NCBI GenBank assembly: GCA_013202725.1 | Contig: JABMRH010000192.1 | Span: 1 to 33,480 of the forward strand | DNA: 33,480 nucleotides | Source: Desulfobacteraceae bacterium | GTDB lineage: Bacteria; Desulfobacterota; Desulfobacteria; Desulfobacterales; ETH-SRB1 | Reading direction: 5' to 3' | Part shown: piece by piece, positions 7,615 to 33,235 of the stretch | Numbering within the stretch: the first letter of the stretch is position 1 | How the letters are laid out: each line of letters begins with the position of its first letter | Translations under genes and position numbers: made by a program | Notes under the pieces: model-generated | Databases searched by the model: none | What the model was told of the DNA's origin: nothing | What the model saw: only the letters and a program-made list of their open reading frames with translations

Positions 7615-7686
7615 GGGTGTAATAATTGATATAAAACCTGTTTTTGGTCTGAAATAGCAGGTCAATTCTTTTATAAATGTTGCAAC

Positions 7687-7720: not shown

Positions 7721-7740
7721 TTAATTAAAGCCGGTGATAG

Positions 7741-16201: not shown

Positions 16202-17035
16202 GTGTCCATTATAACTATTACCGCAGGTTCTTACAGCAATGGAAGGCAAATAGCCAAAAGCGCTGCCAAAAGATTGAATTACGAGTACATAGATAGTGAA
16301 AATATTTCATCACTGGTTTCCAAGGAATTCGGTGTTCCTGAATCAAATATTATGAGAGCTCTTAAAGAAACACCATCAAGCGTTGGTATGTTTTCTAAGG
16401 CTAAGCCCGAATACATAATATTTATTGAGACTTTGATCGCAGAATATTTGTTAAAAAATAATATAGTATATTATGGAGTCGTCGTACTTCCACTTATCCA
16501 GGAGGTTTCCCATGTTCTCAAAGTTCAGATTATCGCTGATTTAGAGAGCAGAATAAAAAATAGAATGAAGCTGGATAATGTATCTCAGGACAAGGCATGT
16601 AAAACACTTGTCAAGGAAGATAATCAGCAAAAGAAATGGGCTGAAGCTGTTTACAATATAGACCTTACAGATCCGAACTTATATGATCTGGTAATAAATA
16701 TCGGACATATACAGGATGATGATGTGGAAGGTGCTCTGGAGACCATTATTGGTACTGTAAAACACAAAAAATTTCAGCCCATGACATATTCATTAAGATG
16801 CATGAAAAATGTTGCGATGTCATGTCGTGTTAGGGCGACTCTGGCTGATATAGATTCAAAAATGCAGGTAAAATCCGATGAAGGAACCGTATATACATAT
16901 ACCAAAGCAATAAAGAAAAAGGCGCAGGATAAGGTATTAGAAATGAAACAAAAGGTAATGAGAATCGAAGGGGTCAAACACATTGAAGTTTTTATAGATT
17001 ATGATTTATTTACAACGGTTGCCCATGGGCAGTAA
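16202..17035 (+). CDS. Cytidylate-kinase-like family protein (degenerate P-loop) with C-terminal extension
   Basis: 277 aa, GTG start after a GAGGAGGGG SD. The N-terminus ITITAGSYSNGRQIAKSAAKRLNYEYID resembles the cytidylate_kin2-type family. Function unknown. Confidence 0.55.
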   Translation: MSIITITAGSYSNGRQIAKSAAKRLNYEYIDSENISSLVSKEFGVPESNIMRALKETPSSVGMFSKAKPEYIIFIETLIAEYLLKNNIVYYGVVVLPLIQEVSHVLKVQIIADLESRIKNRMKLDNVSQDKACKTLVKEDNQQKKWAEAVYNIDLTDPNLYDLVINIGHIQDDDVEGALETIIGTVKHKKFQPMTYSLRCMKNVAMSCRVRATLADIDSKMQVKSDEGTVYTYTKAIKKKAQDKVLEMKQKVMRIEGVKHIEVFIDYDLFTTVAHGQ

Positions 17036-19136: not shown

Positions 19137-19355
19137 TTGTCGTTGAAAAAAAACGATGAAAACATATTGATACGTATTGCGATTATTGAGAACAAAGATT
19201 TGCTTCCTCTTTATGAAGAAGAAAAAGCTCATATAATCAGGGTGCTTGAGGCCACTAATTATAATAAGGTAAGGGCTTTAAAAATTCTTGATATCCCAAG
19301 AACGACTCTATGGAGAAAGATAAAAAAATATGATATTATAGAATCTTTGGGATAA
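19137..19355 (+). CDS. Stand-alone Fis-type (HTH_8) DNA-binding protein
   Basis: 72 aa. TTG start 5 nt after a GGAG SD. EEEKAHIIRVLEATNYNKVRALKILDIPRTTLWRKIKKYDI resembles the C-terminal HTH of NtrC-family activators. Confidence 0.6.
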   Translation: MSLKKNDENILIRIAIIENKDLLPLYEEEKAHIIRVLEATNYNKVRALKILDIPRTTLWRKIKKYDIIESLG

Positions 19356-19452: not shown

Positions 19453-19494
19453 AAATGGCAAACATTTATCCGTTTTGGCAAAATCTTGCCGAAA
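19453..19494 (+). promoter_or_regulatory. Upstream activator sequence, module A (half-site plus 8-6-8 palindrome)
   Basis: AAATGGCAAACATTTATCCG TTTTGGCA AAATCT TGCCGAAA. Near-identical blocks occur at 29596-29637 (minus strand) and 32582-32623. GGCA cores are 20 nt apart. Confidence 0.6.
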
Positions 19495-19590: not shown

Positions 19591-19606
19591 TGGTATGAAC
19601 ATTGCT
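19591..19606 (+). promoter_or_regulatory. Sigma54 (-24/-12) promoter, module A, for the CBS-DASS operon
   Basis: TGGTATGAACATTGCT has GG-N10-GC spacing and a TTGCT -12 box. It lies about 130 nt upstream of the CBS gene. Confidence 0.65.
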
Positions 19607-19735
19607 CTATTGCTCTGTGTTCAGGATAAGATAGGAAGCTTCAATTTATATTAATTTAATAACTTGATCTTATATAATTCAACAACATTATTCAAATTTA
19701 TTGCAAAGATTTTAATAAGATAGAGGGAGGTGTGC

Positions 19736-20260
19736 ATGACAAATACAAAAAAGGTGAAGGAACTCATGGTTAAGATAACCGATTATCCGCACATTCCTTA
19801 TTGGATGAGCATTCGGGATGCGATTGCCATGATGCACAGCGTTTATGACAAAGAATCAGGCCTGGGCGAAAATCGTATGGTTCTGGTTTTTGATGAAAGT
19901 TATCAGCTTATGGGTGTCTTAAGGCTAAGAAACCTGCTCATCGGCATAGAACCTAAATTTCTCAGGAAGGACGAAAAATCGCCTTACCAGGGCCTTAAAC
20001 ATGCTGATTATGCAGGTTTATCTGCACTTGTTGAAGGAACCTTTACGTCAAAATGTAAAGAAGAAGCAGCAAAACCTGTTAGCGAAGTCTTAACACCCAT
20101 AATAGCGACAGTTGATGCAAATGATTCTGTTTCAAAGGCGGCTTTTATAATGCTCCAGGCAGACATCAACCTGGTGCCCGTGATGGATGGTGACAAGGTG
20201 GCAGGTGTCTTACGCATGAGCGATGTCTTTAATGAACTTACTAAAATTGTAATAGAATAA
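19736..20260 (+). CDS. Stand-alone CBS-pair domain protein
   Basis: About 174 aa. Two CBS-like repeats (VKELMVKI...IRDAIAMM and VSEVLTPIIATVDANDSVSKAAFIMLQADINLVPVMDGDKVAGVLRMSDV). The ATG at 19736 is preferred over the GTG at 19730 because a GAGGGAGG SD lies 5 nt upstream. Confidence 0.8.
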   Translation: MTNTKKVKELMVKITDYPHIPYWMSIRDAIAMMHSVYDKESGLGENRMVLVFDESYQLMGVLRLRNLLIGIEPKFLRKDEKSPYQGLKHADYAGLSALVEGTFTSKCKEEAAKPVSEVLTPIIATVDANDSVSKAAFIMLQADINLVPVMDGDKVAGVLRMSDVFNELTKIVIE

Positions 20261-20272
20261 GGGAGGTGAACT

Positions 20273-21802
20273 ATGGCTGAAAAAGCAAAACCAATTGCAA
20301 AAGGTGAAGGCCTCCCTGAGATGCCGGATGAGATTATCCTTTCTCCTGAGAAGCCTCCATTAGACTGGAAGAGACTGCTTTTTATGTCAATAGGGATTAT
20401 CCTGTTTTTAGTTATCTATTTTGCTCCACCATGGCCGGATGCTATTGATCCTATGGGGGAGCATTTTGTCTTATCAAAAGCGGGCAAGGGAGCTCTGGCT
20501 GTTTTTGCGCTGGCCGGCACCTGGTGGGTATTTGAAGTCGTGCCTATAGGCGTAACCAGCATAATGATAGGGGTGCTGCAGGCCCTCTTTCAGGTCAGAT
20601 CCGCCAAAGTAGCCTTTAAGGATTTCATGGACCCCTCTGTTTTGTTTATCTTCGGTTCAATAGTCATTGGCATGGTCTTTACCAAGACAGGGCTGACCAA
20701 GCGTCTCGCGTATAAAATGCTGGAGATTGTAGGAGAAAAGACCAGCATGATCTATCTCGGCTGTTTTGTGGTGACAGCAGCCATGACTCACATCATGGCC
20801 CACACCGCAGTAGCCGCTACCATATTCCCTTTGCTTATGGCTATTTATGCCCTGTACGGAGAAGGTGACAAACAAACCAAGTTCGGCAAGGGGCTTTTTA
20901 TAGGCATGGCCTATGTGGCCGGCGCCGGCAGTATCGTGACCCTTCTTGGTGCGGCACGCGGGGCTGTGGCCATAGGTTTTTATAATGATATTATGAAACA
21001 GGATATAAGCTTTTTCCAGCTTACATATTACATGTTTATCCCGGGCTGGCTGATGACCTTTGCCTTGTGGGGATATTTCATGGTTGTCCTAAAACCCGAG
21101 AAAAAAACCATTCCAGGACTCCGCGAGAAAGCGAAAAAACTCAATGCCCAGTTGGGAAAGATTACCAAGGATGAGATTATGGCCATAGTCATCGTTGCTG
21201 CGGTGATTATTTTCCTGGCACTGCAGTCCTTTATACCGGAGTTGAAGATATTTAATAAAACGGCAGTTATTTTAGTTTCAACCGTAATATTTTTCCTTGT
21301 AAAAATCCTGGATATCAATGACCTCGAAGCAGTACCCTGGAATATTATACTGCTTTTTGCCGGAGCCATGAGCATTGGTTTTTGTCTCTGGGAAACAGGT
21401 GCTGCAAAATGGATGGCAGTAAACTGGCTGGTGATGTTCAAGGAGTCATCCGCGTTGGTGTTTGTAATGAGTATAGCCTTTTTTGTCATGATTATGACCA
21501 ACTTTATCATGAATGTCGCGGCTATTGCCATATCACTTCCAGTGGCTCTGGTTATCGCCCCATATCTTGGCGTGGCTGGAGAGGTGATACTCTTTGCGTC
21601 ACTGGTCGTAGCCGGCATGCCATTCCTCCTGCTGGTGGGTGCGGCTCCTAATGCAATAGCTTATGAATCAAAGCAGTTTTCAACAGGTGAGTTCTTTCTG
21701 TACGGTATTCCAGCCAGCATCCTTCTGATTGCGTGTGTGGCTCTGAGCGTAGGGGTGATCTGGCCGATTCTGGGAATGCCGATTAGTATACCGACACCAT
21801 AA
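20273..21802 (+). CDS. DASS (SLC13) family anion:cation symporter
   Basis: 509 aa, polytopic. Internal duplication typical of DASS carriers. Starts 12 nt after the CBS gene with a GGGAGGTG SD. Confidence 0.8.
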   Translation: MAEKAKPIAKGEGLPEMPDEIILSPEKPPLDWKRLLFMSIGIILFLVIYFAPPWPDAIDPMGEHFVLSKAGKGALAVFALAGTWWVFEVVPIGVTSIMIGVLQALFQVRSAKVAFKDFMDPSVLFIFGSIVIGMVFTKTGLTKRLAYKMLEIVGEKTSMIYLGCFVVTAAMTHIMAHTAVAATIFPLLMAIYALYGEGDKQTKFGKGLFIGMAYVAGAGSIVTLLGAARGAVAIGFYNDIMKQDISFFQLTYYMFIPGWLMTFALWGYFMVVLKPEKKTIPGLREKAKKLNAQLGKITKDEIMAIVIVAAVIIFLALQSFIPELKIFNKTAVILVSTVIFFLVKILDINDLEAVPWNIILLFAGAMSIGFCLWETGAAKWMAVNWLVMFKESSALVFVMSIAFFVMIMTNFIMNVAAIAISLPVALVIAPYLGVAGEVILFASLVVAGMPFLLLVGAAPNAIAYESKQFSTGEFFLYGIPASILLIACVALSVGVIWPILGMPISIPTP

Positions 21803-21980: not shown

Positions 21981-22026
21981 AAAATTAAAGGCAGTTTCAA
22001 AACGTTTTGAAACTGCCTTTAATTTT
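21981..22026. terminator. 46-nt perfect palindrome, likely a bidirectional terminator (serves the minus-strand operon)
   Basis: AAAATTAAAGGCAGTTTCAAAAC|GTTTTGAAACTGCCTTTAATTTT, symmetric about 22003/22004. Flanked by an A7 run (21978-21984), which reads as a T-run on the minus-strand transcript. Confidence 0.75.
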
Positions 22027-22074: not shown

Positions 22075-22818
22075 CTATTTGAAAAATTTCAGAAAGGCAT
22101 GCAGATTGGCCATGGGGTGGGAAGGACAGCCGGGTATATAAAGATCCACGGGAAGAAGGCTATCCAGACCCTCAGTTATTTCCGGACTCCCCCTGAAGGG
22201 TCCGCCGGAGATAGAACAACTGCCGACGGCAATAACCACTTTAGGATCAGGTACTGCTTCATATGTCTGTAACAGGGCTGTTTTCATGTTTCTTGAAATA
22301 GGTCCTGTTACAACAATGCCGTCTGAATGACGGGGGGATGCCACAAAGTTGATGCCAAAACGTGCTAGATCAAAGAAGGGGGTGGCCAGAACGTTCAAAT
22401 CTGCTTCACATGCATTACAACCGGCAGCAGAGACTTGACGCAGTTGCAAAGAACGACCAAACAGCTTTTTAAAATGCTGCCTTGCATGGTCGGCCAGAGA
22501 TGGAATCTCACCATCGGTTAACAAATGGTCTTTCTCGGCAACAGAATATCCAAAATCTCTGGTAAAGGAGATAAACCGTCCCTCTGAGATCCTCTCGCAT
22601 ATTCCGCAAAAAACGCAGCGCCCCATATTGATTAACTTTCGATCTATATCAATTGCATCCTGGGGACATGCTGCAGCGCATTTCACCACCAGATCGGACG
22701 GTGCATTTTTATGGACCTGGGGTCGTCCCCGGTACCGGGGCACCAATTCTACCGTCTTTTTTGGATAGGTGCTTGTCCGGTATCCCTGTTCAAATCTGTT
22801 TTTCAGTGTATTGAGCAT
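22075..22818 (-). CDS. NuoB/HyfI/HycG-like small subunit with an N-terminal degenerate ferredoxin-like segment (EhrS-type)
   Basis: 247 aa. NuoB-type ligand blocks: GCNACE, SPRHSDGIVVTGP, GSCSISGGPF, IPGCPSHP. The N-terminal part carries KCAAACP and CVFCGIC. Confidence 0.85.
   Translation of the reverse strand: MLNTLKNRFEQGYRTSTYPKKTVELVPRYRGRPQVHKNAPSDLVVKCAAACPQDAIDIDRKLINMGRCVFCGICERISEGRFISFTRDFGYSVAEKDHLLTDGEIPSLADHARQHFKKLFGRSLQLRQVSAAGCNACEADLNVLATPFFDLARFGINFVASPRHSDGIVVTGPISRNMKTALLQTYEAVPDPKVVIAVGSCSISGGPFRGSPEITEGLDSLLPVDLYIPGCPSHPMANLHAFLKFFK
22182..22208. repeat. Coding arm of the 27-nt perfect inverted repeat
   Basis: CCGGACTCCCCCTGAAGGGTCCGCCGG. On the minus strand it encodes SGGPFRGSPE of the small subunit. 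Confidence 0.9.
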
Positions 22819-22854
22819 TGTATCTCACTTTGGCAGTTAATAGGTTGTTGATAT

Positions 22855-24363
22855 TTATAGATCAAACCCGCAATAAGACAGGTTATAGCTCTTATTGTTC
22901 AGGGGAAAATCTGAAATTTCCGTATTTCTCAGCGACATGGCAAGGCCGTTCCAATTATGAAAGGAAGGGTCCTTTATCTTGTAACGGAGAATTTTTCCCT
23001 CTGCATCGGTAATAATGCAGTGGGAGAGTTCTCCGCGCCATGCTTCATTGACCGTGACTACAAAGGATGATGAAGGCAGGTTAAAAACTTCTGAATCAAC
23101 ACAGTTTGTTTCAATGGTGTCCTTTAAAAGAGATTTTATTATACTGATTGATTGCAGGATTTCTTCTGCTCTCATTTTTGCCCGGGCATAAACATCACCG
23201 GTTGTTTTTGCATTTTCAGGTATATCAATGCCGGGATAATATTCCGTAGCAAAAGTACGCCTTGCATCATAGGGCAGACCGCAAGCACGTCCGGCCGGCC
23301 CCACAAGACCAAGGTGGTTAGCGTCGGAAGTGCTTACTATGCCGCAGTCTTCAAAACGGGCTCTTACGCTGGAAGTGGAAAAAATCAAGTCGATGACATG
23401 TTCCACCTGGGGTTCAAGTTCATTAATTCGTCTCATTAATTCTCTGCTTATTTCATCATCAATGGAAAAACGGACACCGCCCGGGCGAACAAGTCCTTTT
23501 CCCATCCGGTTTCCGCAGATCAAAAGAGACATATTCAGGAAATCACCGCGCATCCTGCCGCAATAATTGGCAGGGGGCAAAAATGCCACATCACCGCTCA
23601 AGGCGCCAAGATCGCCAACGTGATTGGCAATTCGCTCAAGTTCCAGTCCTATGATTCTTATGATACGGGAGCCCTGGTCGGTTTGAATGGATGTAAGGGC
23701 TTCTACAGCCTGGGCAAAGGATACTCCATTTGCAACTGTAGTGTCGCCGGCAATACCTTCGATGATAATTGGAAGACGTTTTGAATCTGCCTTTAATATT
23801 AGATTTTCGATGCCCCGGTGCTGATAACCAAGCTGGATTTCAAGATGCAGCACCCGTTCTCCAATACAATTGAATCTGAAATGACCTGGTTCAATGATAC
23901 CTGCATGGACCGGACCTACAGCCACCTCATGAATTTCGTCCCCTTCGACTGAATAGTAAGGGTAGTTTCCAGGGATATCTTCCGTGTAATCATTGCCAAA
24001 AACGTCTTTTTTGCCTTGGCTGTTGGGATGATAACGCACCATTTTCAGCCAGGGATGATACTTGGGTACAATGCCGAACTGTTCGGCAATCTCCCGCTCA
24101 AACAATTGGAATGGTTCGCATTTATTAGAGAAAGAGGGATATTCATCAGGGGCGTCACAGCCTGCAACAAGCAGTTTGTCTGTCCTCAACACAGCCATAA
24201 GCTTGACTATGCTGTTGTCTGCATATCCAAAATATTGAACAATTTTTCCTCCGCCCCAGACAATCTTCATGGCATTTTTCTGAAAATCATCAAAAGTAAG
24301 GTGGGGAATCTGTTCTCTGGATAAAGCCTGGCCATTTGAAATTTCTAAAAAATCTGTGTCCAT
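22855..24363 (-). CDS. Fused NuoC-NuoD / HyfG/HycE-like large subunit lacking the [NiFe] cysteine ligands (EhrL-type)
   Basis: 502 aa from the ATG at 24363, which has a GGAGGA SD and a TAATG overlap with the upstream gene. The 539-aa six-frame ORF start is rejected. NuoC block FQLFEREIAEQFGIVPKYHPW. Hydrogenase/NuoD blocks GPVHAGIIEPGHFRF, LGYQHRG, IKDPSF. The ligand positions read EGIAGDTTVANG and SYNLSYCGFDL. Confidence 0.85.
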   Translation of the reverse strand: MDTDFLEISNGQALSREQIPHLTFDDFQKNAMKIVWGGGKIVQYFGYADNSIVKLMAVLRTDKLLVAGCDAPDEYPSFSNKCEPFQLFEREIAEQFGIVPKYHPWLKMVRYHPNSQGKKDVFGNDYTEDIPGNYPYYSVEGDEIHEVAVGPVHAGIIEPGHFRFNCIGERVLHLEIQLGYQHRGIENLILKADSKRLPIIIEGIAGDTTVANGVSFAQAVEALTSIQTDQGSRIIRIIGLELERIANHVGDLGALSGDVAFLPPANYCGRMRGDFLNMSLLICGNRMGKGLVRPGGVRFSIDDEISRELMRRINELEPQVEHVIDLIFSTSSVRARFEDCGIVSTSDANHLGLVGPAGRACGLPYDARRTFATEYYPGIDIPENAKTTGDVYARAKMRAEEILQSISIIKSLLKDTIETNCVDSEVFNLPSSSFVVTVNEAWRGELSHCIITDAEGKILRYKIKDPSFHNWNGLAMSLRNTEISDFPLNNKSYNLSYCGFDL

Positions 24364-25787
24364 TAATATCCTCCGCCGATGGTAGCCACCGCATCGATAA
24401 TCGTCTGGTACAAGGAGTCTGGCAACCAGAAGCACAATACAATTGAGGTAAGAAGCAGTGCATACTGGGGCCATACCATACTTGCTTTCTCTGTTATTTT
24501 AATTTCTTCGGCAGTTGTATCGTGAAAGGAGATTTTCATTACCTGATTTGCAAATCCTGCAAAAATAACGCAGAGACTTAAGATAAATATCCCTGCCACG
24601 AAAAAGTGGCCTGTCCTAAAGGCTCCGACAATAATAAATAGTTCTCCAATAAAAATTCCAAATGGGGGAAAGCCGGAGATTCCGGCAAATCCGCCAAAAA
24701 ACGCCACAAAACTTTTGGGCATAAGCTTTGCCAATCTACCTGTCTTTTCAATGAGTCCGCTACCATACCCCAAAAGGATATTTCCGGAAGTTAAAAACAG
24801 GGAAGATTTAATTAAACTGTGATGGATCAGGCAGATAATTGCTCCGAATGCACCAATGCCGCCGATACCTGTACCAAAGGCAATGATTCCCATGTTTTCA
24901 ACGCTTGAATAGGCAAGCATTCTTTTGTATTCAGTCTGTTTGAGGATAAAGGTGGCTGCTGCAATGATGGAGATTAAACCAAAGACAATAAGAATAGTAC
25001 CGGAAAAATCACCAAGTCCTGCTGCATGCATTATTTTGTTGGTTTTAAAAATTCCAAGGTATGCGCAGTTGAGCAATACGCCGGATAAAAGTGCAGATGC
25101 CGGGCTGGGGGCTTCACTATGGGCATCAGGCAACCAGGTATGCATGGGCGCCAGCCCCATTTTTGTACCATATCCAACAAATATAAAAACAAAACCTGCC
25201 TTGAGCCATGTGGGATCAAGCTGTTTTGCCACAGAGGTAAGGGCTGAAAAGGATACAGGAGCGTCTACCTTGCCTATATCCATGGCAAGTGTAATGAGAA
25301 CTGATCCCAGAAGCGCCATGGCAATGCCCACAGAACAGATCAGAACATATTTCCAGGTGGCTTCAAGGGAAGCTTTTGTTCTATGGGTATAAATCAGAGG
25401 AGCACTTGCAAGAGTGGTGGCCTCTATGGCGATCCACATAACCATGATATGGTCTGACATGGTCACCATTGTCATGGTTGCCAAAAAGATCAGCATGGAC
25501 CCGGTAAAAATATGTTCAGACTTAATCTTTGCCGCTTTAAGATAACCTGTTGAGTATATGGCGATCAGGAAAAAGAGCAATGAAATAACAAGCAGGGATA
25601 ACAGTCCCTCAGGTGTTACTGCAAAATAATCCGGGAAAAGAGCAACAGGTCTCTTTATCCAAATCAGAACAGAGAGTCCGAGGTGAAATGCACCAGTGAG
25701 CACCAGGAGCGCACGGCCGGATGACCTTGGAAGAAAAAACGCCATAATGCCGGTTAGAAACGGGGCCAACATAAGGATTTCAATCAT
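24363..25787 (-). CDS. NuoM/N / HyfF-like antiporter-type membrane subunit (EhrD-type)
   Basis: 474 aa, about 14 TM helices. Blocks typical of proton-conducting membrane transporter subunits: LAPMHTWLPDAHSEAPSPASALLSGVLLN, MLAYSSVENMG. Confidence 0.85.
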   Translation of the reverse strand: MIEILMLAPFLTGIMAFFLPRSSGRALLVLTGAFHLGLSVLIWIKRPVALFPDYFAVTPEGLLSLLVISLLFFLIAIYSTGYLKAAKIKSEHIFTGSMLIFLATMTMVTMSDHIMVMWIAIEATTLASAPLIYTHRTKASLEATWKYVLICSVGIAMALLGSVLITLAMDIGKVDAPVSFSALTSVAKQLDPTWLKAGFVFIFVGYGTKMGLAPMHTWLPDAHSEAPSPASALLSGVLLNCAYLGIFKTNKIMHAAGLGDFSGTILIVFGLISIIAAATFILKQTEYKRMLAYSSVENMGIIAFGTGIGGIGAFGAIICLIHHSLIKSSLFLTSGNILLGYGSGLIEKTGRLAKLMPKSFVAFFGGFAGISGFPPFGIFIGELFIIVGAFRTGHFFVAGIFILSLCVIFAGFANQVMKISFHDTTAEEIKITEKASMVWPQYALLLTSIVLCFWLPDSLYQTIIDAVATIGGGY

Positions 25788-25798
25788 GAAAGAATCAC

Positions 25799-26440
25799 CT
25801 ATTCCTTTAAAGTTCTTAAAACCGCAGTGTCAACAACATCAAACTTCTGTTTGATATTCTGAAGTATAATGGCCATGACCATTACACCGGCCAATACATC
25901 AAGAAGAATACCAAATTCCACAATATGATGGGCACGCGTGGAGAACGTCGTTCCAACAAGATAGATTCCGTTTTCCATCATAATATAGCCAAGGACCATG
26001 GCAATGGCATTTCTCCTTGCCATCAGCAGAAACATTCCGGTCACAAGAATTGTTATGGCCGTAGGTATTAACAAAGCACTTTTCATAATTAATGGTACAT
26101 TTAACTTGTAACTCACAACAGATGCGGCAACGATTAATACCAGACCTGCAAACAGGGAGGCATGATATCCGATAATAGGCTCCACCTCCCGACGGATGGC
26201 AACTCTTTTTATAACCAGATAAATGCTCAAGGGGATTACAACTCCCCTGATCCAGAGGGTGACCATGGTAAAAAGAAGACCGCCGCCTGTCATTTCATGA
26301 CCGATAAAGAAAGGCACAATAGAAACAACCACTCCCTGAAAAGCCACGAACCTGATAAGTCCTGTAAGATGGCTGGTTCCCAGGGAAAACAGGACGGACA
26401 GCAGCACAAGGGACAAGATGGTATCGACCGGATGTATCAT
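25799..26440 (-). CDS. HyfE-like (NuoK-related) membrane subunit (EhrC-type)
   Basis: 213 aa, about 7 TM helices, in the operon position of HyfE. ATGA overlap with the upstream gene. Confidence 0.75.
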   Translation of the reverse strand: MIHPVDTILSLVLLSVLFSLGTSHLTGLIRFVAFQGVVVSIVPFFIGHEMTGGGLLFTMVTLWIRGVVIPLSIYLVIKRVAIRREVEPIIGYHASLFAGLVLIVAASVVSYKLNVPLIMKSALLIPTAITILVTGMFLLMARRNAIAMVLGYIMMENGIYLVGTTFSTRAHHIVEFGILLDVLAGVMVMAIILQNIKQKFDVVDTAVLRTLKE

Positions 26441-27354
26441 TTTATAAACTCCATGATGATAACGGTTGCAAAAGAAGCCAGGGCAAAAGAAGTCAGAATA
26501 AATTTTGGCACTTTGTCCATTCTGTAACGGGCCATAACCGATTCAGTAACCCCGGCAGCAACATACACACATATAAGACTACAAATTTCCAAAGCAGGGT
26601 TGAGCGTCTCAAAAGGAAAAAACAAAGGAAAAAGCAGTCGCGAAACAATGGTTGAGTAGAAAAAGAGCTTGCAGAATGATGCTAACTCAATAAATCCAAA
26701 ATCAGGACCGCTATGGTCCAGCACCATAACCTCATGGATCATGGTCAGCTCCAGGTGAGTTGCCGGATCATCTACGGGAACCCTGGAATTTTCTGTTAAA
26801 AGAACGATAAAAAGGGCAATAACAACGAAAAGCATTGTTGAGCCTGCACTATTCCATAGAATAGCGGGATTATTTCCGCTAAAATAGGAAGCAAGGCTTA
26901 ATTCACCCGTCAGTTTGTAAAACAGGATCAGAACCATGAACATTGTGGCTTCGCATATTATGGGGAAATACGCTTCCCTGGCAGCGCCCATTCCTTCAAA
27001 AGGAGAAGCTGTATCCATTGCAGCGGCAATGGTAAAAAAACGTCCCAGTCCAAGGAGATATAAAACAAACAATACATCACCGTTAAAGGAAAAAACAGGC
27101 GCTATGCCTGCAATGGGCAGGAACATTAATGCCGTGGCAGCTGAGCTCAGGGAAATAATGGGGCCAAGCTTAAAGATAATCGTCGTGCTGGTGCTATAGA
27201 CTGATCCCTTTTTAAACAGTTTGATCAAGGTGTAATAATTGATCAGAAACGGTGAGCCTTTCCTTCCCCCAAAAAAAGCCTTGACCTTTATAATAATTGC
27301 GGAAAAGAACGGCGCCAGAAGCATGGCAAGGCACCAGATATAAATTGGTTTCAT
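26437..27354 (-). CDS. NuoH / HyfC/HycD-like membrane subunit (EhrB-type)
   Basis: 305 aa, about 8 TM helices. Loop PVDDPATHLELTMIHEVMVLDHSGP occupies the position of the NuoH/HycD charged loop. Confidence 0.8.
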   Translation of the reverse strand: MKPIYIWCLAMLLAPFFSAIIIKVKAFFGGRKGSPFLINYYTLIKLFKKGSVYSTSTTIIFKLGPIISLSSAATALMFLPIAGIAPVFSFNGDVLFVLYLLGLGRFFTIAAAMDTASPFEGMGAAREAYFPIICEATMFMVLILFYKLTGELSLASYFSGNNPAILWNSAGSTMLFVVIALFIVLLTENSRVPVDDPATHLELTMIHEVMVLDHSGPDFGFIELASFCKLFFYSTIVSRLLFPLFFPFETLNPALEICSLICVYVAAGVTESVMARYRMDKVPKFILTSFALASFATVIIMEFIK

Positions 27355-27449
27355 AGTGCATCCTCTTTCAAAAAACTCAATGTTAATACTATGCTCAAGC
27401 CCAAACGATCCTTTAGGTCAGTTAACTTTTATATGCCAAAAGAGCACAT

Positions 27450-29411
27450 TTACACAAAAAACAGCACAACAATAACGGCAAGCAGAATATATCCTATATA
27501 AAGATGAATATCTCCGTGCTGCATCCAGCGTAATTTATCAAAAAAGAACAGTACCGGACGAACTATCACGTTGTGCTGGTGAAGCTCAGCAATATCATTA
27601 ACATGACTATGATAGTGTGTCTTTCTTCTAGGCATCCGTCCACGAATTGGGGGGTGATCTTCATGCACAGGGGCAAAAGGCCTGAAAAAATCAATTATGG
27701 ATGCTGCATAAGAAGATCCTGTATACTGCATTTTAACAGTAGGCTGGGTAAATCCACAACCCCAGGTTCCTGATCGGGTAATGGATTTGCCTCTGTATGC
27801 TAACGCACGGATTATAAGAACAAAAAGAACAACGGCAAAAAATAGCGCTGCAGCCCGGGTTATGTTGCCTGTCATGCGAACGATCGGTTCAAACTGAATC
27901 CATTCGTAACCAAGGCCCAGGGAGGAAACTCCTTTCATGGCCATGAGTATAAAAAACTTGGGGTAAACACCTATGATAAGACAAAAACCTGCCAGTACCA
28001 GCATAGGGGCCAGCATGGAAAAGCCTTGCTCATCCACGTTCTCAGCTGCCGCACTTCTTGGCTCACCCTGGAAAACCACTCCCACAACTTTGGTAAAACA
28101 GGCCAGGGCCAGACCACCGATAACTGCAAGACTGATAATGGCAATAAGACTCATGGCAAAGGTCATTCTGTCCAATCCAACGCCCTTGAACCCACCTATA
28201 TAGATAAGGAACTCACTTACAAAACCGTTAAAGGGCGGGAGTCCGGAAATTGCCAGGGAGCCTATGAGAAAAGTAGTTCCGGTAATTTTCATTTTTTTGA
28301 TAAGTCCGCCCAGGATATCGATGGTGCGAGTACCGGTTTTCTTCAAAACCATTCCTGCCCCCATAAAGAGGAGTGATTTAAAAATGGCATGATTGAGCAC
28401 ATGCAAAAGGCCCCCTGAGAATCCAAGTATTGCCATGGGAACATTTCCAGATGACACACCGATCATGCCGATTCCTGTTCCAATGAGAATGATTCCAATA
28501 TTTTCCACACTGTGGTAAGCCAGAAGCCGTTTTAGGTCATGCTGACCCAGGGCATAGACTACTCCAAGGACTCCGGAAATACAACCGGCCGCAAGAACAA
28601 TGCCTCCAATGACTGGTGAATGGTAGTTTAAAAGAACATACATACGAATAATACCGTAAATACCTACCTTGATCATTACGCCTGACATAACTGCGGAAAT
28701 ATGGCTTGGAGCAGCAGGGTGTGCATGGGGCAACCAGACGTGGAAGGGAAAAACGCCGGCCTTGGAGCCGAAACCAATGAAGAATAGAATAAATACTATA
28801 AGTTTAAATGTATCAGGTAATGAAACCATTTGCCCAAACCCTAAACTGCCTGTATGGGCATATGCTACTCCAAACCCTGCAAAGATAAACATTGCACCTA
28901 CATGAGAGAAAACAAAATATAGATAACCTGCCCTGCGATTTTCAATTGCCTCATAATTAAATATGACCAGGAAAAAAGAAGAAAGGGACATGATTTCCCA
29001 AGAAAGCATAAAAGTGATCATGCCTTTAGAGGCTACTACCAGCGCCATAGACACGATAAGCAGGCTGAAAAAAAGGTAGTTTGTTGCTGTGCGAAGGGCT
29101 TTGTCAGTTTTGTCCATATAATGAAAACTGTAAATGCTTGCCAATAAAGAGATAGCGAAGATAGTGACCAGAAAAAAAGCTGACAGACCATCAATTTGAA
29201 AAGAAAGGGAAAAGGATTTTAGATATTTAAAAGAAGCAACATACTCTCCTGGACTTATCAGCTTGGATCCGGCGTCAACCAGACCCAGAATGCATCCTGC
29301 AACAATGGTAAAAACACTGAAAATCTTCATCATGAAAAATTGTCGCCTAATTAAGGGGGCAAACAGGCCCCCTGCAAATATTATCAACAGAGATAGAAAA
29401 AATAGATTCAT
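27450..29411 (-). CDS. NuoL / HyfB-like antiporter-type membrane subunit (EhrA-type)
   Basis: 653 aa. Contains FPFHVWLPHAHPAAPSHISAVMSGVMIKVG and LLAYHSVENIG. The C-terminal extension with TWGCGF..MQYTGSSYA is as in HyfB-type subunits. GAGAGGA SD upstream. Confidence 0.88.
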   Translation of the reverse strand: MNLFFLSLLIIFAGGLFAPLIRRQFFMMKIFSVFTIVAGCILGLVDAGSKLISPGEYVASFKYLKSFSLSFQIDGLSAFFLVTIFAISLLASIYSFHYMDKTDKALRTATNYLFFSLLIVSMALVVASKGMITFMLSWEIMSLSSFFLVIFNYEAIENRRAGYLYFVFSHVGAMFIFAGFGVAYAHTGSLGFGQMVSLPDTFKLIVFILFFIGFGSKAGVFPFHVWLPHAHPAAPSHISAVMSGVMIKVGIYGIIRMYVLLNYHSPVIGGIVLAAGCISGVLGVVYALGQHDLKRLLAYHSVENIGIILIGTGIGMIGVSSGNVPMAILGFSGGLLHVLNHAIFKSLLFMGAGMVLKKTGTRTIDILGGLIKKMKITGTTFLIGSLAISGLPPFNGFVSEFLIYIGGFKGVGLDRMTFAMSLIAIISLAVIGGLALACFTKVVGVVFQGEPRSAAAENVDEQGFSMLAPMLVLAGFCLIIGVYPKFFILMAMKGVSSLGLGYEWIQFEPIVRMTGNITRAAALFFAVVLFVLIIRALAYRGKSITRSGTWGCGFTQPTVKMQYTGSSYAASIIDFFRPFAPVHEDHPPIRGRMPRRKTHYHSHVNDIAELHQHNVIVRPVLFFFDKLRWMQHGDIHLYIGYILLAVIVVLFFV

Positions 29412-29484: not shown

Positions 29485-29500
29485 AGCAAGGTTTATACCA
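29485..29500 (-). promoter_or_regulatory. Sigma54 (-24/-12) promoter, module B, for the Ehr-type operon
   Basis: The minus strand reads TGGTATAAACCTTGCT with GG-N10-GC spacing. It is identical to the 16-mer at 32719-32734 and lies about 75 nt upstream of the start at 29411. Confidence 0.7.
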
Positions 29501-29595: not shown

Positions 29596-29637
29596 TTTTG
29601 GCAAGATTTTGCCAAAACAGATGATTGTTTACCAATC
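29596..29637 (-). promoter_or_regulatory. Upstream activator sequence, module B
   Basis: The minus strand reads GATTGGTAAACAATCATCTG TTTTGGCA AAATCT TGCCAAAA. The 8-6-8 palindrome is perfect. It lies about 96 bp upstream of the -24 box and also faces the divergent LbH gene. Confidence 0.6.
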
Positions 29638-29885: not shown

Positions 29886-29915
29886 GGGGGATAAAGAATG
29901 GGGGGATAAAGAATG
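29886..29915 (+). repeat. Tandem duplication of SD plus ATG (GGGGGATAAAGAATG x2)
   Basis: Exact 15-nt copies at 29886-29900 and 29901-29915. The first ATG (29898) opens ATG GGG GGA TAA. The second ATG (29913) opens the 473-aa ORF. Confidence 0.9.
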
Positions 29916-31334
29916 GAGCAGTTAAAAAGTCTTAATGATCTTAATGATAGAATTGTAAACAGAGTAAATATAAGTTTACAAGAATTTGATTTTAACGCAA
30001 ATGCTTTTGTAACAAAAGCTATGAATCATGATAAAATGCTTAAATTTTATGCATTTTATGGAATCACTTCTCAACATCCGATTTATTTCAATTTTAGCAA
30101 TTCTAATATATCCGGCAGTTATTTTTTGGGAAAATGTTCTGTTAGAAGATCTGCAATCTATAAAAGTGATATAAGAGGAGATGAACTTAAAAGAAAAGGA
30201 AATAACAGTTTAAGATCTAACAAACTTCCGCTTGTTCAAGATGAAATAATAATCATCAGACACAGCCTGCTCTACAAAACACTTGTTCACAATAATTCAC
30301 ATAATCCTGGGACACCGGAAGAATTTCTTATCATAAACACAATGTCAACGCATTACGCTAATATTCATGGTTCTACACTTGAAGGATGTTTCTTAGGACC
30401 TTTTGCAACAGTTGATCTGATGAATCTTCATTCATGCATTATTGGTGAATTTTCATATGTTCAGGCGGGTGAACTTTTCCAGACGATTATTGATCCGGGA
30501 ACAATATGGATTAGAAATCCCAGCTTTAGTTTCAAGTATAAATTTGAAAAAAAAGTTCTGGATAAATATATTGGTGTAAACCCATCATATCAACCGCGTG
30601 GAATTATATACGATTTTGTAAAAGAAAAAGAAAGAGAATATGAATCACTTTTTGATGTTGTAGATATAATACCTGTAGAAACTCCTCCTAGTTCTGCTGT
30701 TAACAGGTATGCTGTTGTTAAAGGAAAAACCAGTATTGGTGAAAATGTTCTAATATCTCAACATGCATTTTTAGAAAATGCCGAAATGGGCAAAGGATCT
30801 AATGCTCAAGAAAATTCATATATTATTAATTCATGTTTAGCCGGTTTTAATATTACAGCACATGGAGCCAAGATTATCAATGCGGAAATAGGTCTTGAAA
30901 CATTTGTTGGCTTTAATTGTTTTTTAAATGGTAAAACAACTAAAAGACTGGTAATCGGTGATAATTGTATTGTTATGCCTCATACAATAATTGATTCAAC
31001 TGAACCGGTTGAAGTACCTGATAATCATCTTATATGGGGTTATATCGGATCTCAAAATGATCTTGATAATCACTCTATTAGTATTGATAAACTTTCAGAT
31101 TCTCGAGATATGATAACTATTGGCAAAATGACTTTTATAGGAAAAGGTTCTGTTTTTATTGGTATTTTTAAAAAAAGAATCAATCATATTCTACATTCCA
31201 ACGGTGCATTTTTTAAAGACGATGAGAACCGTGGTCATGCACAGGACGATCAAATTATTTCATTTAATACAATTCAACCATATAGAACAGGTGTTAATAA
31301 AGGAATCTATCCATCAATTAAAATTGAACCATAA
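29913..31334 (+). CDS. Hexapeptide-repeat (left-handed beta-helix) protein with two LbH segments, gamma-carbonic-anhydrase/acyltransferase-like; function unknown
   Basis: 473 aa. N-terminal LbH turns: IHGSTLEGCFLGPFATVDLMNLHSCIIGEFSYVQAGEL. C-terminal gamma-CA/PaaY-like segment: SIGENVLISQHAFLEN...NITAHGAKIINAEIGLETFVGFNCFLNG...VIGDNCIVMPHTII...LIWGYIGSQ. Visibly more AT-rich than its neighbours. Confidence 0.65.
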   Translation: MEQLKSLNDLNDRIVNRVNISLQEFDFNANAFVTKAMNHDKMLKFYAFYGITSQHPIYFNFSNSNISGSYFLGKCSVRRSAIYKSDIRGDELKRKGNNSLRSNKLPLVQDEIIIIRHSLLYKTLVHNNSHNPGTPEEFLIINTMSTHYANIHGSTLEGCFLGPFATVDLMNLHSCIIGEFSYVQAGELFQTIIDPGTIWIRNPSFSFKYKFEKKVLDKYIGVNPSYQPRGIIYDFVKEKEREYESLFDVVDIIPVETPPSSAVNRYAVVKGKTSIGENVLISQHAFLENAEMGKGSNAQENSYIINSCLAGFNITAHGAKIINAEIGLETFVGFNCFLNGKTTKRLVIGDNCIVMPHTIIDSTEPVEVPDNHLIWGYIGSQNDLDNHSISIDKLSDSRDMITIGKMTFIGKGSVFIGIFKKRINHILHSNGAFFKDDENRGHAQDDQIISFNTIQPYRTGVNKGIYPSIKIEP

Positions 31335-31388: not shown

Positions 31389-32390
31389 TCATATAGGGGG
31401 TTTTGAACTTCGTTCATATTTTATGTTATATTTTTGAAGTTTGTATCTTAAAGTTCTTGGACTTATACGTAGTATTTTTGCTGTTTTTTCCTTGTCGCCG
31501 GCGAGGCGGTGTAATGTATCCATAATAGCTTTTTTTTCAGCCTCACTTCTGATTTCCTCAAGGTCCTTTATACGGTGGGGATCTTTAAAATGCCATAAAA
31601 AATCAGAGGGAAGATGTTCTACGCTTATCGTATCGTAATCGTTGAGGATAAATACTCTTTCTAAAAGATTTTTCAATTCCCTTACATTGCCGGGCCAGTC
31701 ATAACGACAGAAAAGGTCAATGACTTCAGGCTTAACAGCTGGCTTTGGTTTTTTAAAATTAATTGCCGATTGATTCAGAAAGCGGTCTACCATTTTTGGA
31801 ATAACGTTTTTCCTGTCTCTTAAGGGCGGTACATATATGGGAACTACATGAAGCCTGTAAAATAAGTCTTCTCGAAATAATCCCTTCTTGACTTCGTTTT
31901 TCAGGTCTTTATTTGTTGCCGATATAATACGGACGTCTACTTCAATTATTTCATTTCCTCCAATTCGGTGAAAGCAGAAATCTTCTAAAACACGTAAAAA
32001 ATCAATCTGATTTTCAAGAGGAAGATCAGAAACCTCGTCAAGGAAAAGGGTCCCTTTGTCAGCCATCTCAAAGCAGCCTTTTTCTTGGCAAATGGCGCCG
32101 GTAAAGGCTCCTTTTTCATGACCGAAAAGCTTGTCTTCGAACATAAGGCCTGAAAGAATGCCGGAGTTCACCGGCACAAAGGGATTTTCAGCTCTAGGGC
32201 TTTGCAGGTGAATGATTTTGGCAACCAGTTCCTTACCAGTGCCGCTTTCACCTGTAATCAGTACATTAACATCGTGTTTGGCCACTTGATTTACAGTTTG
32301 CATAATGGAGTGCATCACTTCTGCGCCCAGGATGAACTCATGCATGATTGATTCCTGGAGGTGCTTTATATAGGGAGAATGCAGTTTCAT
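31389..32390 (-). CDS. Sigma54-dependent transcriptional activator (bEBP) lacking an N-terminal sensory/receiver domain (PspF/HrpS-like architecture)
   Basis: 333 aa, or 318 aa if it starts at the ATG at 32345, which has an AGGAA SD. Walker A GESGTGKE, GAFTGA motif (EKGAFTGA), Walker B LFLDEV, C-terminal HTH KTAKILRISPRTLRYKLQKY. The AAA+ core begins within about 30 aa of the start. Confidence 0.9.
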   Translation of the reverse strand: MKLHSPYIKHLQESIMHEFILGAEVMHSIMQTVNQVAKHDVNVLITGESGTGKELVAKIIHLQSPRAENPFVPVNSGILSGLMFEDKLFGHEKGAFTGAICQEKGCFEMADKGTLFLDEVSDLPLENQIDFLRVLEDFCFHRIGGNEIIEVDVRIISATNKDLKNEVKKGLFREDLFYRLHVVPIYVPPLRDRKNVIPKMVDRFLNQSAINFKKPKPAVKPEVIDLFCRYDWPGNVRELKNLLERVFILNDYDTISVEHLPSDFLWHFKDPHRIKDLEEIRSEAEKKAIMDTLHRLAGDKEKTAKILRISPRTLRYKLQKYNIKYERSSKPPI

Positions 32391-32581: not shown

Positions 32582-32623
32582 AAACGGCAAACTTTTATCC
32601 TTTTTGGCATAAATTTGCCAAAA
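32582..32623 (+). promoter_or_regulatory. Upstream activator sequence, module C
   Basis: AAACGGCAAACTTTTATCCT TTTTGGCA TAAATT TGCCAAAA. Same layout as modules A and B. Lies between the divergent bEBP and CBS genes. Confidence 0.6.
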
Positions 32624-32677: not shown

Positions 32678-32690
32678 TATCATGTAATTA
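32678..32690 (+). promoter_or_regulatory. IHF-like box, module C (one mismatch)
   Basis: TATCATGTAATTA versus WATCAA-N4-TTR. It lies exactly 76 nt from the palindrome start, as in modules A and B. Confidence 0.35.
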
Positions 32691-32718
32691 TGTCAAGAAA
32701 AGATGATTCTTTGCCGGT

Positions 32719-32734
32719 TGGTATAAACCTTGCT
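32719..32734 (+). promoter_or_regulatory. Sigma54 (-24/-12) promoter, module C
   Basis: TGGTATAAACCTTGCT is identical to the module B promoter. It lies 117 nt from the palindrome start, the same as module B. It falls inside the 5' end of the six-frame ORF 32690-33235. Confidence 0.6.
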
Positions 32735-32746
32735 CTAAGATATTGT

Positions 32747-33235
32747 ATGTATTCAAAAAAAATAGTTAAAAACTATATGCATCCTCTTGATAAATATTGT
32801 TACATTAATGAGGATGACAGTATACATAAAGCTCTTGTCCTTATGGATGAAATAAGGAAAGAGAGTAAATCTCTATGCCTGGTTGTATTGGGAGCAGGTT
32901 CGTCTGAAAGGGAAACAATAAAGGGTTTTGTGACTCCTTCGGAACTTGTTTTCGGATTGTTATCCCACTTTTTAAAAGGGGTTCAAAGAAGCGGTCCGAT
33001 TTTTTGGGAAGGACAGTTTGAAACAGAATGCCTTGAAGGAGTGAAAAAACGTGTAGAGGAGATAATGCTTCCTATTAAGACTTATGTTAGAGGAAGCGAA
33101 ATGCTTATGGAGGCTGTTTTTTTGTTAGACAAATACAGGATGGATTTCCTGCCGGTAGTAAACAAGGATGAAGTGGTTGGCATAATTCATCTTGATGATA
33201 TTTTAGAGGAGATTTACGGCATTATACTGAAATAG
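32747..33235 (+). CDS. Stand-alone CBS-pair domain protein (start re-assigned)
   Basis: CBS-like repeats: IVKNYMHPLDKYCYINEDDSIHKALVLM and VEEIMLPIKTYVRGSEMLMEAVFLLDKYRMDFLPVVNKDEVVGIIHLDDI. The six-frame start at 32690 would place the module C promoter inside the gene. In-frame ATGs at 32747 or 32777 are more consistent. Confidence 0.6.
   Translation: MYSKKIVKNYMHPLDKYCYINEDDSIHKALVLMDEIRKESKSLCLVVLGAGSSERETIKGFVTPSELVFGLLSHFLKGVQRSGPIFWEGQFETECLEGVKKRVEEIMLPIKTYVRGSEMLMEAVFLLDKYRMDFLPVVNKDEVVGIIHLDDILEEIYGIILK

Follow-up and report, generated by a model that had tools for sequence, protein, structure and literature searches.

The stretch analysed here (hereafter the window) comprises 33 kb of DNA from a Desulfobacteraceae bacterium (contig JABMRH010000192.1, positions 1–33,480) and carries six minus-strand genes, ehrABCDLS, that almost certainly encode an energy-converting hydrogenase-related (Ehr) complex. 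Ehr has been called a "missing link" between complex I and the group-4 hydrogenases; the class is already known and widespread, and this locus is a further member. The complex is predicted from its sequence to be unable to bind a [NiFe] centre, and our favoured explanation is that it works as a redox-driven ion pump in a Hyf or minimal-complex-I build; we put the probability of this explanation as a whole at roughly 55%. That the electron wire, the proton path, and the pumping residues are all conserved speaks for a functional pump of this kind, and redox-driven ion pumping taken by itself is probable. Ferredoxin as the donor and menaquinone as the acceptor are proposed tentatively, with the odds somewhat against this particular pair. 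An earlier note on the same DNA had called the six genes an Ehr-type relative of group-4 hydrogenases and complex I; the absence of the [NiFe] motifs, the HycE-like fold, and the ehrA/B/C/D/L/S gene order bear this out, and the function, which it described as unknown, is still so described in papers up to 2023.

Hosts of Ehr include biogeochemically or medically important organisms, namely sulfate reducers, Geobacter, cable bacteria, comammox Nitrospira, verrucomicrobial methanotrophs, and Mycobacterium tuberculosis. The locus narrows the function of Ehr and does not solve it: it offers a selected two-cluster wire, a proton path, and a full pumping apparatus, and has no conserved partner. Its value lies in constraints at the level of the family, the context of a sulfate-uptake cluster, and cultured carriers of the same locus; it points to Desulfobacula toluolica Tol2 and Desulfobacter hydrogenophilus as test organisms, whose published genomes have the same operon in a cluster around a DASS-type transporter.

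Active site, cluster chain, and membrane arm

HMMER matched the large subunit EhrL to the Protein Data Bank (PDB) entries of MbhL (2.6e-35) and HycE (9.5e-34) and, much more weakly, to MbsL (2.4e-17). In these alignments, G-I-A205-G-D-T208-T-V-A-N212 sits under the R-x-C-G-x-C-x3-H motif of MbhL (6CFW) and HycE (7Z0S), with A205 and T208 in place of the two cysteines and N212 in place of the histidine. The earlier note had found this altered L1 motif, IEGIAGDTTVANG, where it does translate, but had ended it at 23760, one codon short of 23763. The former L2 motif has become SYNLSYCGFDL, which, as had been stated, translates together with the stop codon from 22855–22890; S492-Y-N-L-S496-Y-C498-G499-F-D-L502 pairs residue by residue with HycE S-L-D529-P-C531-Y-S-C534-T-D-R537 (numbering of PMC9474812), S496 and G499 replacing the two cysteines. 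The sole cysteine at the EhrL C-terminus, C498, is out of register with the HycE cysteines. The EhrL stop codon coincides with the end of mature HycE, that is to say, the maturation cleavage site, and EhrL has no C-terminal extension.

EhrL was aligned with some 100 full-length sequences, each standing for a 50%-identity cluster in a library of 1.8 billion proteins. The [NiFe] cysteines were replaced in all but four of these, and the replacements are themselves conserved across the family: (i) the L1 substitute follows E202-x-[IV]-[A/S/C]-G206-D207-[T/S], in which G206 and D207 are at least 90% conserved; and (ii) the L2 substitute follows S-F-[N/D]-L-S496-Y497-[C/S/A]-G499-x-D501-L. Pairwise, profile, and approximately 100-sequence alignments agree that both cysteine motifs are gone, and the by-eye alignment behind the earlier note was not shifted. 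The four exceptions (P0199, P0223, P0241, and P0259) have 32–34% identity and a common C-terminal SF[EN]L-x-Y-x-x-x-D[LR], but they keep the full CGxC...CxxC set, as ERxCGxC...H and CYSC. They are probably putative group 4f [NiFe] hydrogenases, which have been said to be closest to Ehr (PMC10284858). In a neighbour-joining tree, these four are sister to 92 Cys-less representatives, EhrL lies among the latter and not inside the Cys-bearing clade, and Ehr together with the Cys-bearing group is split from HycE in 36 of the 50 bootstraps. The monophyly of either group was recovered in 14–15 of the 50, which is too weak for us to claim a one-time loss of the cysteine ligands.

The AlphaFold2 model of EhrL computed from the family alignment (pLDDT 92.9, pTM 0.93) had HycE as its best Foldseek match (7Z0S_E, TM 0.89), followed by the fused NuoCD of Escherichia coli complex I (TM 0.79–0.86). 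The surroundings of the old active site are predicted still to handle protons through E158, R443, H248, and N494. The β1-β2 loop GPVHAGIIEPGHFRF is of the hydrogenase type and at least 90% conserved in the Ehr family; E158 within it, conserved to the same extent, aligns with MbhL E21 and HycE E193, the proton donor to the active site. The canopy arginine R478 and the proton-path histidine H284 of HycE correspond to EhrL R443 and H248 (both at least 90% conserved), and the canopy aspartate D529 corresponds to N494, which is Asn or Asp across the family; the roles of these HycE and MbhL residues are taken from PMC7684303 and PMC9474812. Y497 is the counterpart of HycE Y532 and appears to be ancestral, not a newly acquired quinone ligand. 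The polar D207, T208, and S496 would line the EhrL site, unlike the hydrophobic, proton-free pocket of MBS.

The small subunit EhrS had been described as NuoB/HyfI-like. The NuoB-like part is present (residues 131–245, nt 22084–22428; MbhJ 8.5e-32 and HycG 2.4e-31), but the description missed about 105 HyfH-like residues at the N-terminus (residues 1–105, nt 22504–22818), which match the ferredoxin domain of HyfH/HycF/NuoI (HycF 2e-9), and the gene is a HyfH-HyfI fusion. The four cysteines of the proximal cluster, also reported earlier, are C134 and C137 (GCNACE), C201 (GSCSISGG), and C231 (PGCP), and they are 94–97% conserved in 70 loci. The spacing C134-N-A-C137 is the CxxC of MbhJ and HycG, and the alignment to MbhJ is gapless across the loop. 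The HyfH-like domain retains only C47-x3-C51-P and C68-x2-C71-x2-C74. On the usual rule for 2x[4Fe-4S] ferredoxins, the domain would hold the ligands of one [4Fe-4S] cluster (C51, C68, C71, and C74), with C47 as a surplus. All nine EhrS cysteines are 91–97% conserved in the 70 loci, which come from many phyla, and this argues that the Ehr family has selected a chain of two [4Fe-4S] clusters.

Some details of EhrS vary or stand apart. C47 (nt 22678–22680; position III of the first ferredoxin motif) is 93% conserved though its three ancestral partner ligands are gone. The open reading frame (ORF) at the EhrS position of locus L035 (261 aa) keeps a complete CxxCxxCxxxCP, and a few loci encode the HyfH-like and NuoB-like parts as separate ORFs.

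With HycC and MbhH as alignment references, the charged residues to which ion translocation is ascribed in this superfamily are 89–100% conserved in the four membrane subunits across 57–69 loci: (i) EhrA E139, K217, H224, H231, K248, H337, H341, K345, and E400 (96–100%, 57 loci); (ii) EhrB E120, E127, E135, E188, R191, D195, D196, H200, E202, E208, D213, and E271 (94–100%, 65 loci); (iii) EhrC E156, E175, and D181 (100%, 68 loci); and (iv) EhrD E142, K146, K209, H216, K327, and E382 (93–100%, 69 loci). Both the antiporter Lys/Glu/His relay and the acidic E-channel of the NuoH/NuoK-like subunits, and with them the pumping machinery, appear intact.

Proposed mechanism and competing explanations

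For every subunit, the best match in sequence and fold is E. coli Hyf or formate hydrogenlyase (FHL; Hyc, 7Z0S; group 4a [NiFe]), with which Ehr shares the HyfE- and HyfF-like subunits, the β1-β2 glutamate, the canopy arginine, the proton-path histidine, and the CxxC proximal motif. Unlike Hyf and FHL, Ehr has no [NiFe] ligands and no maturation peptide, its HyfH and HyfI parts are fused, its chain is one cluster shorter, and no HyfA/HycB, HyfD, FdhF, hyp, or hycI gene is found in the operon or the 33-kb window. MBS/Mbx of Pyrococcus furiosus (6U8Y) is likewise a [NiFe]-free descendant of group-4 hydrogenases in which redox chemistry is coupled to ion pumping. MBS has a three-Cys proximal cluster, no equivalent of E21, two vestigial cysteines, three clusters, and an Mrp Na+ module (PMC7684303), whereas Ehr has four proximal cysteines, E158, no vestigial [NiFe] cysteine, two clusters, and no Mrp module. 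Complex I and NDH-1 resemble Ehr in the loss of all four [NiFe] cysteines, the fused NuoCD-like fold, the NuoH-like E-channel, and the antiporter-like subunits; they differ in that Ehr is without equivalents of H38 and Y87, the tandem-Cys N2, NuoA, NuoJ, and NuoEFG, and has two clusters where the NuoI/NuoB part has three. Judged by its residues, Ehr would match none of the three characterised active-site solutions, namely the [NiFe] centre, the quinone site of complex I, and the open-Fe cluster of MBS.

Two further Ehr systems have been described. In Geobacter sulfurreducens, GSU0739-0745 (EhrA-1, EhrB, EhrC, EhrD, EhrL, and EhrS) have the same subunit set and order and a large subunit without the [NiFe] cysteines; the subunit names used here come from Geobacter (PMC7894505). 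The Geobacteraceae loci L040, L041, and L056 have the same order, with 43–45% identity in EhrL. Geobacter-type loci have a second EhrA and often a regulator combining a helix-turn-helix (HTH) with an EIIA(Ntr)-like domain, whereas the present locus has one EhrA, sigma-54 control, and LbH (left-handed beta-helix), CBS, and DASS neighbours. Rv0082-Rv0087 ("hyc") of M. tuberculosis, whose host is without [NiFe] maturation genes, have been called a non-hydrogenase EHR complex regulated by Rv0081 (PMC6728331); the likeness is taken from the published description, and regulation (DosR/MprA/Rv0081) and host physiology differ.

In the mechanism that we favour, a soluble low-potential donor, most likely reduced ferredoxin, would pass electrons to the single cluster of the EhrS HyfH-like domain and onward to the proximal cluster. 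A proton-consuming acceptor would be reduced in the remodelled pocket at the interface of EhrL, EhrS, and EhrB; our best guess is menaquinone, bound otherwise than in complex I. The reaction would drive the export of H+ (possibly Na+) via EhrB, EhrC, EhrD, and EhrA, and could reduce ferredoxin when run in reverse, for example, in aerobes needing reduced ferredoxin. Ehr hosts include ferredoxin-producing anaerobes and also such aerobes, and the lack of a conserved partner gene favours a soluble carrier such as ferredoxin as the donor. Ech, FHL, and MBH have one antiporter-like subunit each, whereas Ehr has two or three, which suggests an acceptor of higher potential than H+; among the candidates, menaquinone alone is nearly universal across the hosts.

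The most specific form of this proposal would make Ehr a reversible ferredoxin:menaquinone oxidoreductase and proton pump, with a two-cluster wire and a remodelled pocket (E158, D207, T/S208, S496, Y497, and R443) instead of the complex-I His/Tyr site, and recruited in Desulfobacteraceae to a sulfate-uptake regulon (sigma-54, CBS, and DASS). That all of these parts hold together is doubtful. If the first part were true, it would give a function to a complex that hundreds of species carry, among them sulfate reducers, Geobacter, Nitrospira, and M. tuberculosis; if the recruitment were true, Ehr would supply ion-motive force under sulfate or energy limitation.

Several observations weigh against the ferredoxin:menaquinone pump and its place in such a regulon. 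The quinone ligands of complex I are missing, as Nqo4 H38 and Y87 correspond to I157 and G206, which are themselves at least 90% conserved across Ehr, and EhrS has no N2-type tandem cysteine. The EhrS chain has two clusters and not three; three are conserved in MBH, MBS, NDH-1, and complex I (PMC8165549) and likewise in HycF-HycG of FHL (PMC9474812), and if the surviving cluster of the HyfH part were the distal one, electron transfer would be implausibly long-range. Riflemargulisbacteria reported to have Ehr apparently lack quinone biosynthesis (PMC6349859). Ferredoxin binding, quinone binding, and the ion specificity are inferred. The sigma-54 and palindrome elements described below were found upstream of ehrA only in a 96%-identical relative (L001); 12 further Desulfobacterota loci and a stricter scan covering 61 loci gave none, and this wiring is lineage-specific.

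The main rival to the redox-driven pump is suggested by the regulator and transporter neighbourhoods of ehr. It is an ion-homeostasis machine, an Mrp-like cation/proton transporter whose Fe-S clusters would be a redox sensor or a structural relic and which would adjust H+, Na+, or K+ according to the redox or energy state, here aiding Na+-coupled anion uptake. The neighbours are overwhelmingly regulators and ion or anion carriers and not redox enzymes (a PtsN-like regulator in 28 of the 80 loci; DASS, CBS, CLC-CBS, TrkAH, and SulP; an Na/Ca exchanger in the window), the cluster chain is down to two, and no donor or acceptor enzyme is conserved nearby. We nevertheless consider this unlikely, because the Fe-S ligands and proton-relay residues are kept at the 90–100% level across phyla, beyond the apparent need of a sensor, the Mrp-type Na+ module is absent (no MrpB/C/E/F/G homologue was found with Pfam or NCBIfam), and known Mrp antiporters function without a peripheral arm. 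An MBS-like sulfur reductase, whose proximal cluster or remodelled pocket would reduce polysulfide, sulfane sulfur, or other sulfur species, would suit a sulfate reducer and the placement in a sulfate-uptake cluster (the DASS context in Desulfobacterales); MBS, the one [NiFe]-free relative to have been characterised, demonstrates that a pocket of this kind can act on a substrate other than quinone (PMC7684303). This is made improbable by the presence of all four proximal cysteines with MBH-like CxxC spacing and no three-residue deletion, by the conservation of the MbhL-E21 glutamate that is missing in MBS, by the lack of an Mrp Na+ module, and by the wide occurrence of Ehr without sulfur respiration in Verrucomicrobiota, Planctomycetota, Nitrospira, and mycobacteria.

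A partner-dependent complex, in which Ehr would dock a formate dehydrogenase or other oxidoreductase encoded elsewhere and couple it to ion translocation as in FHL, has been proposed for Margulisbacteria and Saganbacteria (PMC6349859). Every Ehr subunit is more abundant on formate in Geobacter (PMC7894505), and in Desulfobacter hydrogenophilus the operon has a molybdopterin oxidoreductase in its vicinity. We give this only a slim chance, since no formate dehydrogenase, NuoE/F, or HycB-like gene occurs in the window or recurs among 244 neighbours of 80 loci, and the HyfH-like domain, truncated and fused into EhrS as it is, no longer has the C-terminal extension by which HycF touches HycB/FdhF in FHL. 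An energy-coupled CO2/bicarbonate system, that is, a vectorial carbonic anhydrase of the kind known from cyanobacterial NDH-1MS/CupA or from DabAB, in which LbH or an LCIB-like protein would serve as hydratase, is very improbable. It would draw on a weak LCIB_C_CA match (23.5 bits vs 25) upstream of ehrA in two loci (L008 and L014), SulP in four loci and DabA in one, a contact of the N-terminal beta-helix of the LbH profile with plant complex-I gamma-CA2 (E~0.02), and the resemblance of LbH THYANIHG to the gamma-carbonic anhydrase zinc motif (HxxxxHG); but every one of these signals is sub-threshold or rare, H147 of the HxxxxHG is not conserved in seven orthologues, the LbH profile matches GlmU/LpxD acyltransferases better than gamma-carbonic anhydrases, and the LCIB-like ORF has no NCBIfam match and no relation to its positional counterpart in Desulfobacterales. 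The fold and gene order of Hyf/FHL would also suit a genuine [NiFe] hydrogenase with misaligned motifs or a decaying pseudogene cluster. Its chance is practically nil: this candidate is effectively refuted by the concordance of pairwise, profile, and family alignments on the missing cysteines and by the conserved substitutes, and EhrL has no C-terminal maturation extension and none of the six genes, which at least 589 species conserve, is broken.

Operon layout and regulation

The six ORFs were confirmed by the ORF listing at their expected positions (Table 1), with the strand and coordinates that the earlier note gave. The two overlaps that it reported are also present: ATGA joins the ehrB stop and the ehrC start, and TAATG joins the ehrD stop and the ehrL start. 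The latter overlap backs the EhrL start (ATG 24363–24361), as do its homologues, which are mostly 502 aa. Pfam and NCBIfam likewise uphold the subunit families proposed before (HyfB/NuoL, NuoH, HyfE, HyfF, NuoC-NuoD, and NuoB-like). EhrL matches Complex1_49kDa and, weakly, Complex1_30kDa, and EhrA matches HycC (4e-66) and MbhH (5.5e-58) in the PDB. Most NCBIfam matches of the six proteins lie under the curated cut-offs (e.g., EhrA to "hydrogenase 4 subunit B", 567 bits vs 667), and no equivalog model passes; the sole pass is the general NuoB subfamily model NF005012 (117 bits vs 116). Since the scores are mostly well below the cut-offs, no named equivalog claims the Ehr proteins.

Table 1. Features of the window (positions of the whole stretch)
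Feature	Position	Strand	Remarks
ehrA	27450..29411	-	HyfB/HycC/NuoL-like antiporter-type subunit, 653 aa; HycC-like C-terminal extension (WGCGF); PF00361 3.7e-54 + PF00662
ehrB	26437..27354	-	NuoH/HycD/HyfC-like, joins peripheral and membrane arms, 305 aa; PF00146 3.2e-33
ehrC	25799..26440	-	HyfE-like (NuoK-related) membrane subunit, 213 aa; NCBIfam "hydrogenase 4 membrane subunit" 3.7e-23 (below cut-off), weak PF00420
ehrD	24363..25787	-	HyfF/NuoM/N-like antiporter-type subunit, 474 aa; PF00361 7.3e-50; "Hydrogenase 4 subunit F" 7e-100 (below cut-off)
ehrL	22855..24363	-	fused NuoC-NuoD/HycE-like large subunit without [NiFe] ligands, 502 aa; PF00346 1.2e-39
former L1 [NiFe] motif	23725..23763	-	in ehrL
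former L2 [NiFe] motif and C-terminus	22858..22890	-	in ehrL
ehrS	22075..22818	-	HyfH/HycF/NuoI-like + NuoB/HycG/MbhJ-like fusion; Oxidored_q6
terminator-like hairpin	21981..22026	-	20-bp perfect, T-run, ~50 bp past ehrS stop, between the convergent ehr and DASS units
sigma-54-type -24/-12 element, ehr operon	29485..29500	-	TGGTATAAACCTTGCT; 74 bp upstream of ehrA ATG
palindrome, ehr operon	29598..29615		TTGGCAAAATCTTGCCAA; putative enhancer-binding-protein site, ~100 bp upstream of the sigma-54 element
palindrome, CBS-DASS unit	19475-19492		
-24/-12 element, CBS-DASS unit	19591-19606	+	near copy of TGGTATAAACCTTGCT
palindrome, second CBS gene	32604-32621		
-24/-12 element, second CBS gene	32719-32734	+	16-mer identical to TGGTATAAACCTTGCT
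CBS-domain protein	19730-20260	+	matches Desulfobacteraceae DASS cluster, with the next row
DASS Na+:anion (putative sulfate) symporter	20273-21802	+	
LbH protein	29913..31334	+	473 aa, divergent from ehrA; PDB 3C8V family ("putative acetyltransferase"), 2.4e-152
sigma-54 enhancer-binding protein	31389-32390	-	no sensor domain; AAA+ domain from residue 23
second CBS protein	32690-33235	+	own palindrome and sigma-54 element
RodA, ATP synthase b, b', delta, alpha... block	1-8511		common to Tol2 (vs L086/L087)
Na/Ca exchanger	9664-10647		
PPDK_N + PEP-utilizer mobile-domain protein	10653-13283	-	876 aa
response regulator	13513-13944		
CitMHS carrier	14331-16145		two TrkA_C domains
cytidylate-kinase-like protein	16202-17035		
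ORF with Fis-type HTH	~19144-19355	+	~70 aa, by eye; RTTLWRKIKKYDI

Between the promoter and the terminator, no NuoA, NuoJ, or NADH- or ferredoxin-input module (NuoEFG, NdhS, etc.) was matched among the six genes. The earlier report of no hyp, hycI, formate dehydrogenase, or carbon monoxide dehydrogenase gene also stands for the window ORFs scanned, absences of this kind being limited to the 33 kb and not extending to the whole genome. Together, the sigma-54-type element before ehrA and the hairpin after ehrS mark the six genes as one unit. The hairpin is flanked by A-runs and T-runs and could terminate transcription both ways.

A composite element, in which the palindrome lies about 100 bp upstream of a TGGTAT-N5-TTGCT box, occurs in three copies in the window, upstream of the ehr operon, the CBS-DASS unit, and the second CBS gene. 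The three sites of the palindrome TTGGCA-N6-TGCCAA amount to six strand matches, compared with 0.12 expected by chance. Because ehr shares its promoter type and palindrome with the CBS-DASS genes, the two are probably inducible together. The best NCBIfam match of the activator is the C-terminal part of the CBS-containing regulator PrdR, whose CBS region is in turn matched by both stand-alone CBS proteins; the arrangement resembles a split regulator, and the CBS proteins might control the activator in trans.

Three smaller points concern these regions. TATATATCAATAGGTTGCA lies between palindrome and promoter in two of the copies and is possibly an IHF-type site. As annotated, the second CBS ORF begins (32690) upstream of its own promoter, and the true start is therefore probably an ATG near 32747–32778. 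The possible small ORF with a Fis-type HTH, suggested by eye, lies between a histidine kinase gene and the first palindrome.

Genomic surroundings in Desulfobacterales and across the family

A conserved cluster around a DASS-type sulfate transporter, with many two-component systems and CBS proteins, was described in Desulfobacteraceae in 2025 (PMC11887813), Ehr being unmentioned. DASS, CBS, and two-component genes also recur near ehr in Desulfobacterales, and wherever the flank of a Desulfobacterales locus is long enough (L001, L003, L004, L007, L010, L013, and L082-L088), the LbH gene is no more than about 7 kb from ehr, in varying arrangements. The locus is syntenic with that of Desulfobacula toluolica Tol2, and ehr lies inside the DASS cluster also in Desulfobacter hydrogenophilus. 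On the Tol2 chromosome, the order is EhrC, EhrD, EhrL, EhrS, an HTH-EIIA regulator, a CLC-CBS channel, a 275-aa ORF, Peptidase_U32, LbH, MreBCD/PBP2/RodA, and ATP synthase. This region accounts exactly for the ten loci that separate the sodium/sulfate symporter TOL2_C19470 from the hexapeptide protein TOL2_C19580, and ehrABCDLS of Tol2 would, by count, be TOL2_C19480-C19530. The constitutive proteome of Tol2 in the 2025 study lists C19430 (response regulator), C19460 (CBS), C19470 (DASS), and C19580 (LbH) and none of the ten loci between the last two, which would fit an inducible ehr operon.

The LbH protein has two beta-helix segments, of which the C-terminal one is acyltransferase-like (GlmU/LpxD) and the N-terminal one has invariant H126, H130, and H152; a C-terminal NRGHAQ...Q-P motif is conserved, and 3C8V itself is uncharacterised. 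In L082, two LbH paralogues stand on either side of a CBS gene. The RodA-ATP-synthase block at the beginning of the window lies on the LbH side of ehr in Tol2 and about 14 kb beyond the DASS side here; the region has thus been rearranged between the two genomes, and the shared block indicates that the window comes from a close relative of these Desulfobacteraceae. The cytidylate-kinase-like and DASS genes are adjacent in Desulfobacter hydrogenophilus (L088) too.

A pattern scan with one genome per species matched at least 600 stretches, of which 589 encode a relative; at least 589 species-level genomes of many phyla thus have the gene order, making Ehr much commoner than the earlier note implied. 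The phyla include Desulfobacterota (Desulfobacterales, cable bacteria, and Geobacterales), Planctomycetota, Verrucomicrobiota, Acidobacteriota, Gemmatimonadota, Spirochaetota, Lentisphaerota, Omnitrophota, Chlamydiota, and some Alphaproteobacteria. Nearly all of the 80 retrieved loci have the order A-B-C-D-L-S, and a second EhrA is frequent. Their neighbours were surveyed by grouping 2574 flanking ORFs de novo and by assigning Pfam families to the nearest 244; regulators and transporters emerged, and no formate dehydrogenase, NuoE/F, carbon monoxide dehydrogenase, or hyp gene recurs. Small Fer4 proteins occur near ehr in only about 3–4 loci, and histidine kinases, response regulators, and sigma-54 activators in about 19.

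The PtsN-like regulator of 28 loci (HTH_17+PTS_EIIA_2, by clustering) is the most widely conserved non-Ehr neighbour, spans several phyla, and is a candidate for a dedicated Ehr regulator. Its gene, with an excisionase-type HTH_17, stands on the same strand beside ehr in L018, L023, L042, L086 (4165-4839), and about 24 more loci, including Tol2; it is not in this window. SulP/STAS carriers lie just upstream of ehr in four loci of Planctomycetota, Verrucomicrobiota, or Omnitrophota (L025, L026, L045, and L060). The single DabA match (1.8e-241), a downstream neighbour, is probably L025:3821-7060, to judge from its size (~1080 aa) and an adjoining weak NuoL-like match, with the locus unconfirmed. 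Directly upstream of ehrA, cable-bacteria/Desulfobulbaceae loci have an ORF of about 390–400 aa (L008:3509-4687 and L014:3700-4869, with which L009 clusters) that contains FCSDEN and has a sub-threshold match to LCIB-type carbonic anhydrase (PF18599). In some Desulfobacterales, L083:3596-4831 and L013:3621-4853, a conserved 411-aa ORF (74% identity between the two) stands directly upstream of ehrA and on its strand, with no Pfam or NCBIfam match; its N-terminus resembles, by eye, the nucleotide-binding part of phosphoenolpyruvate (PEP)-utilising enzymes.

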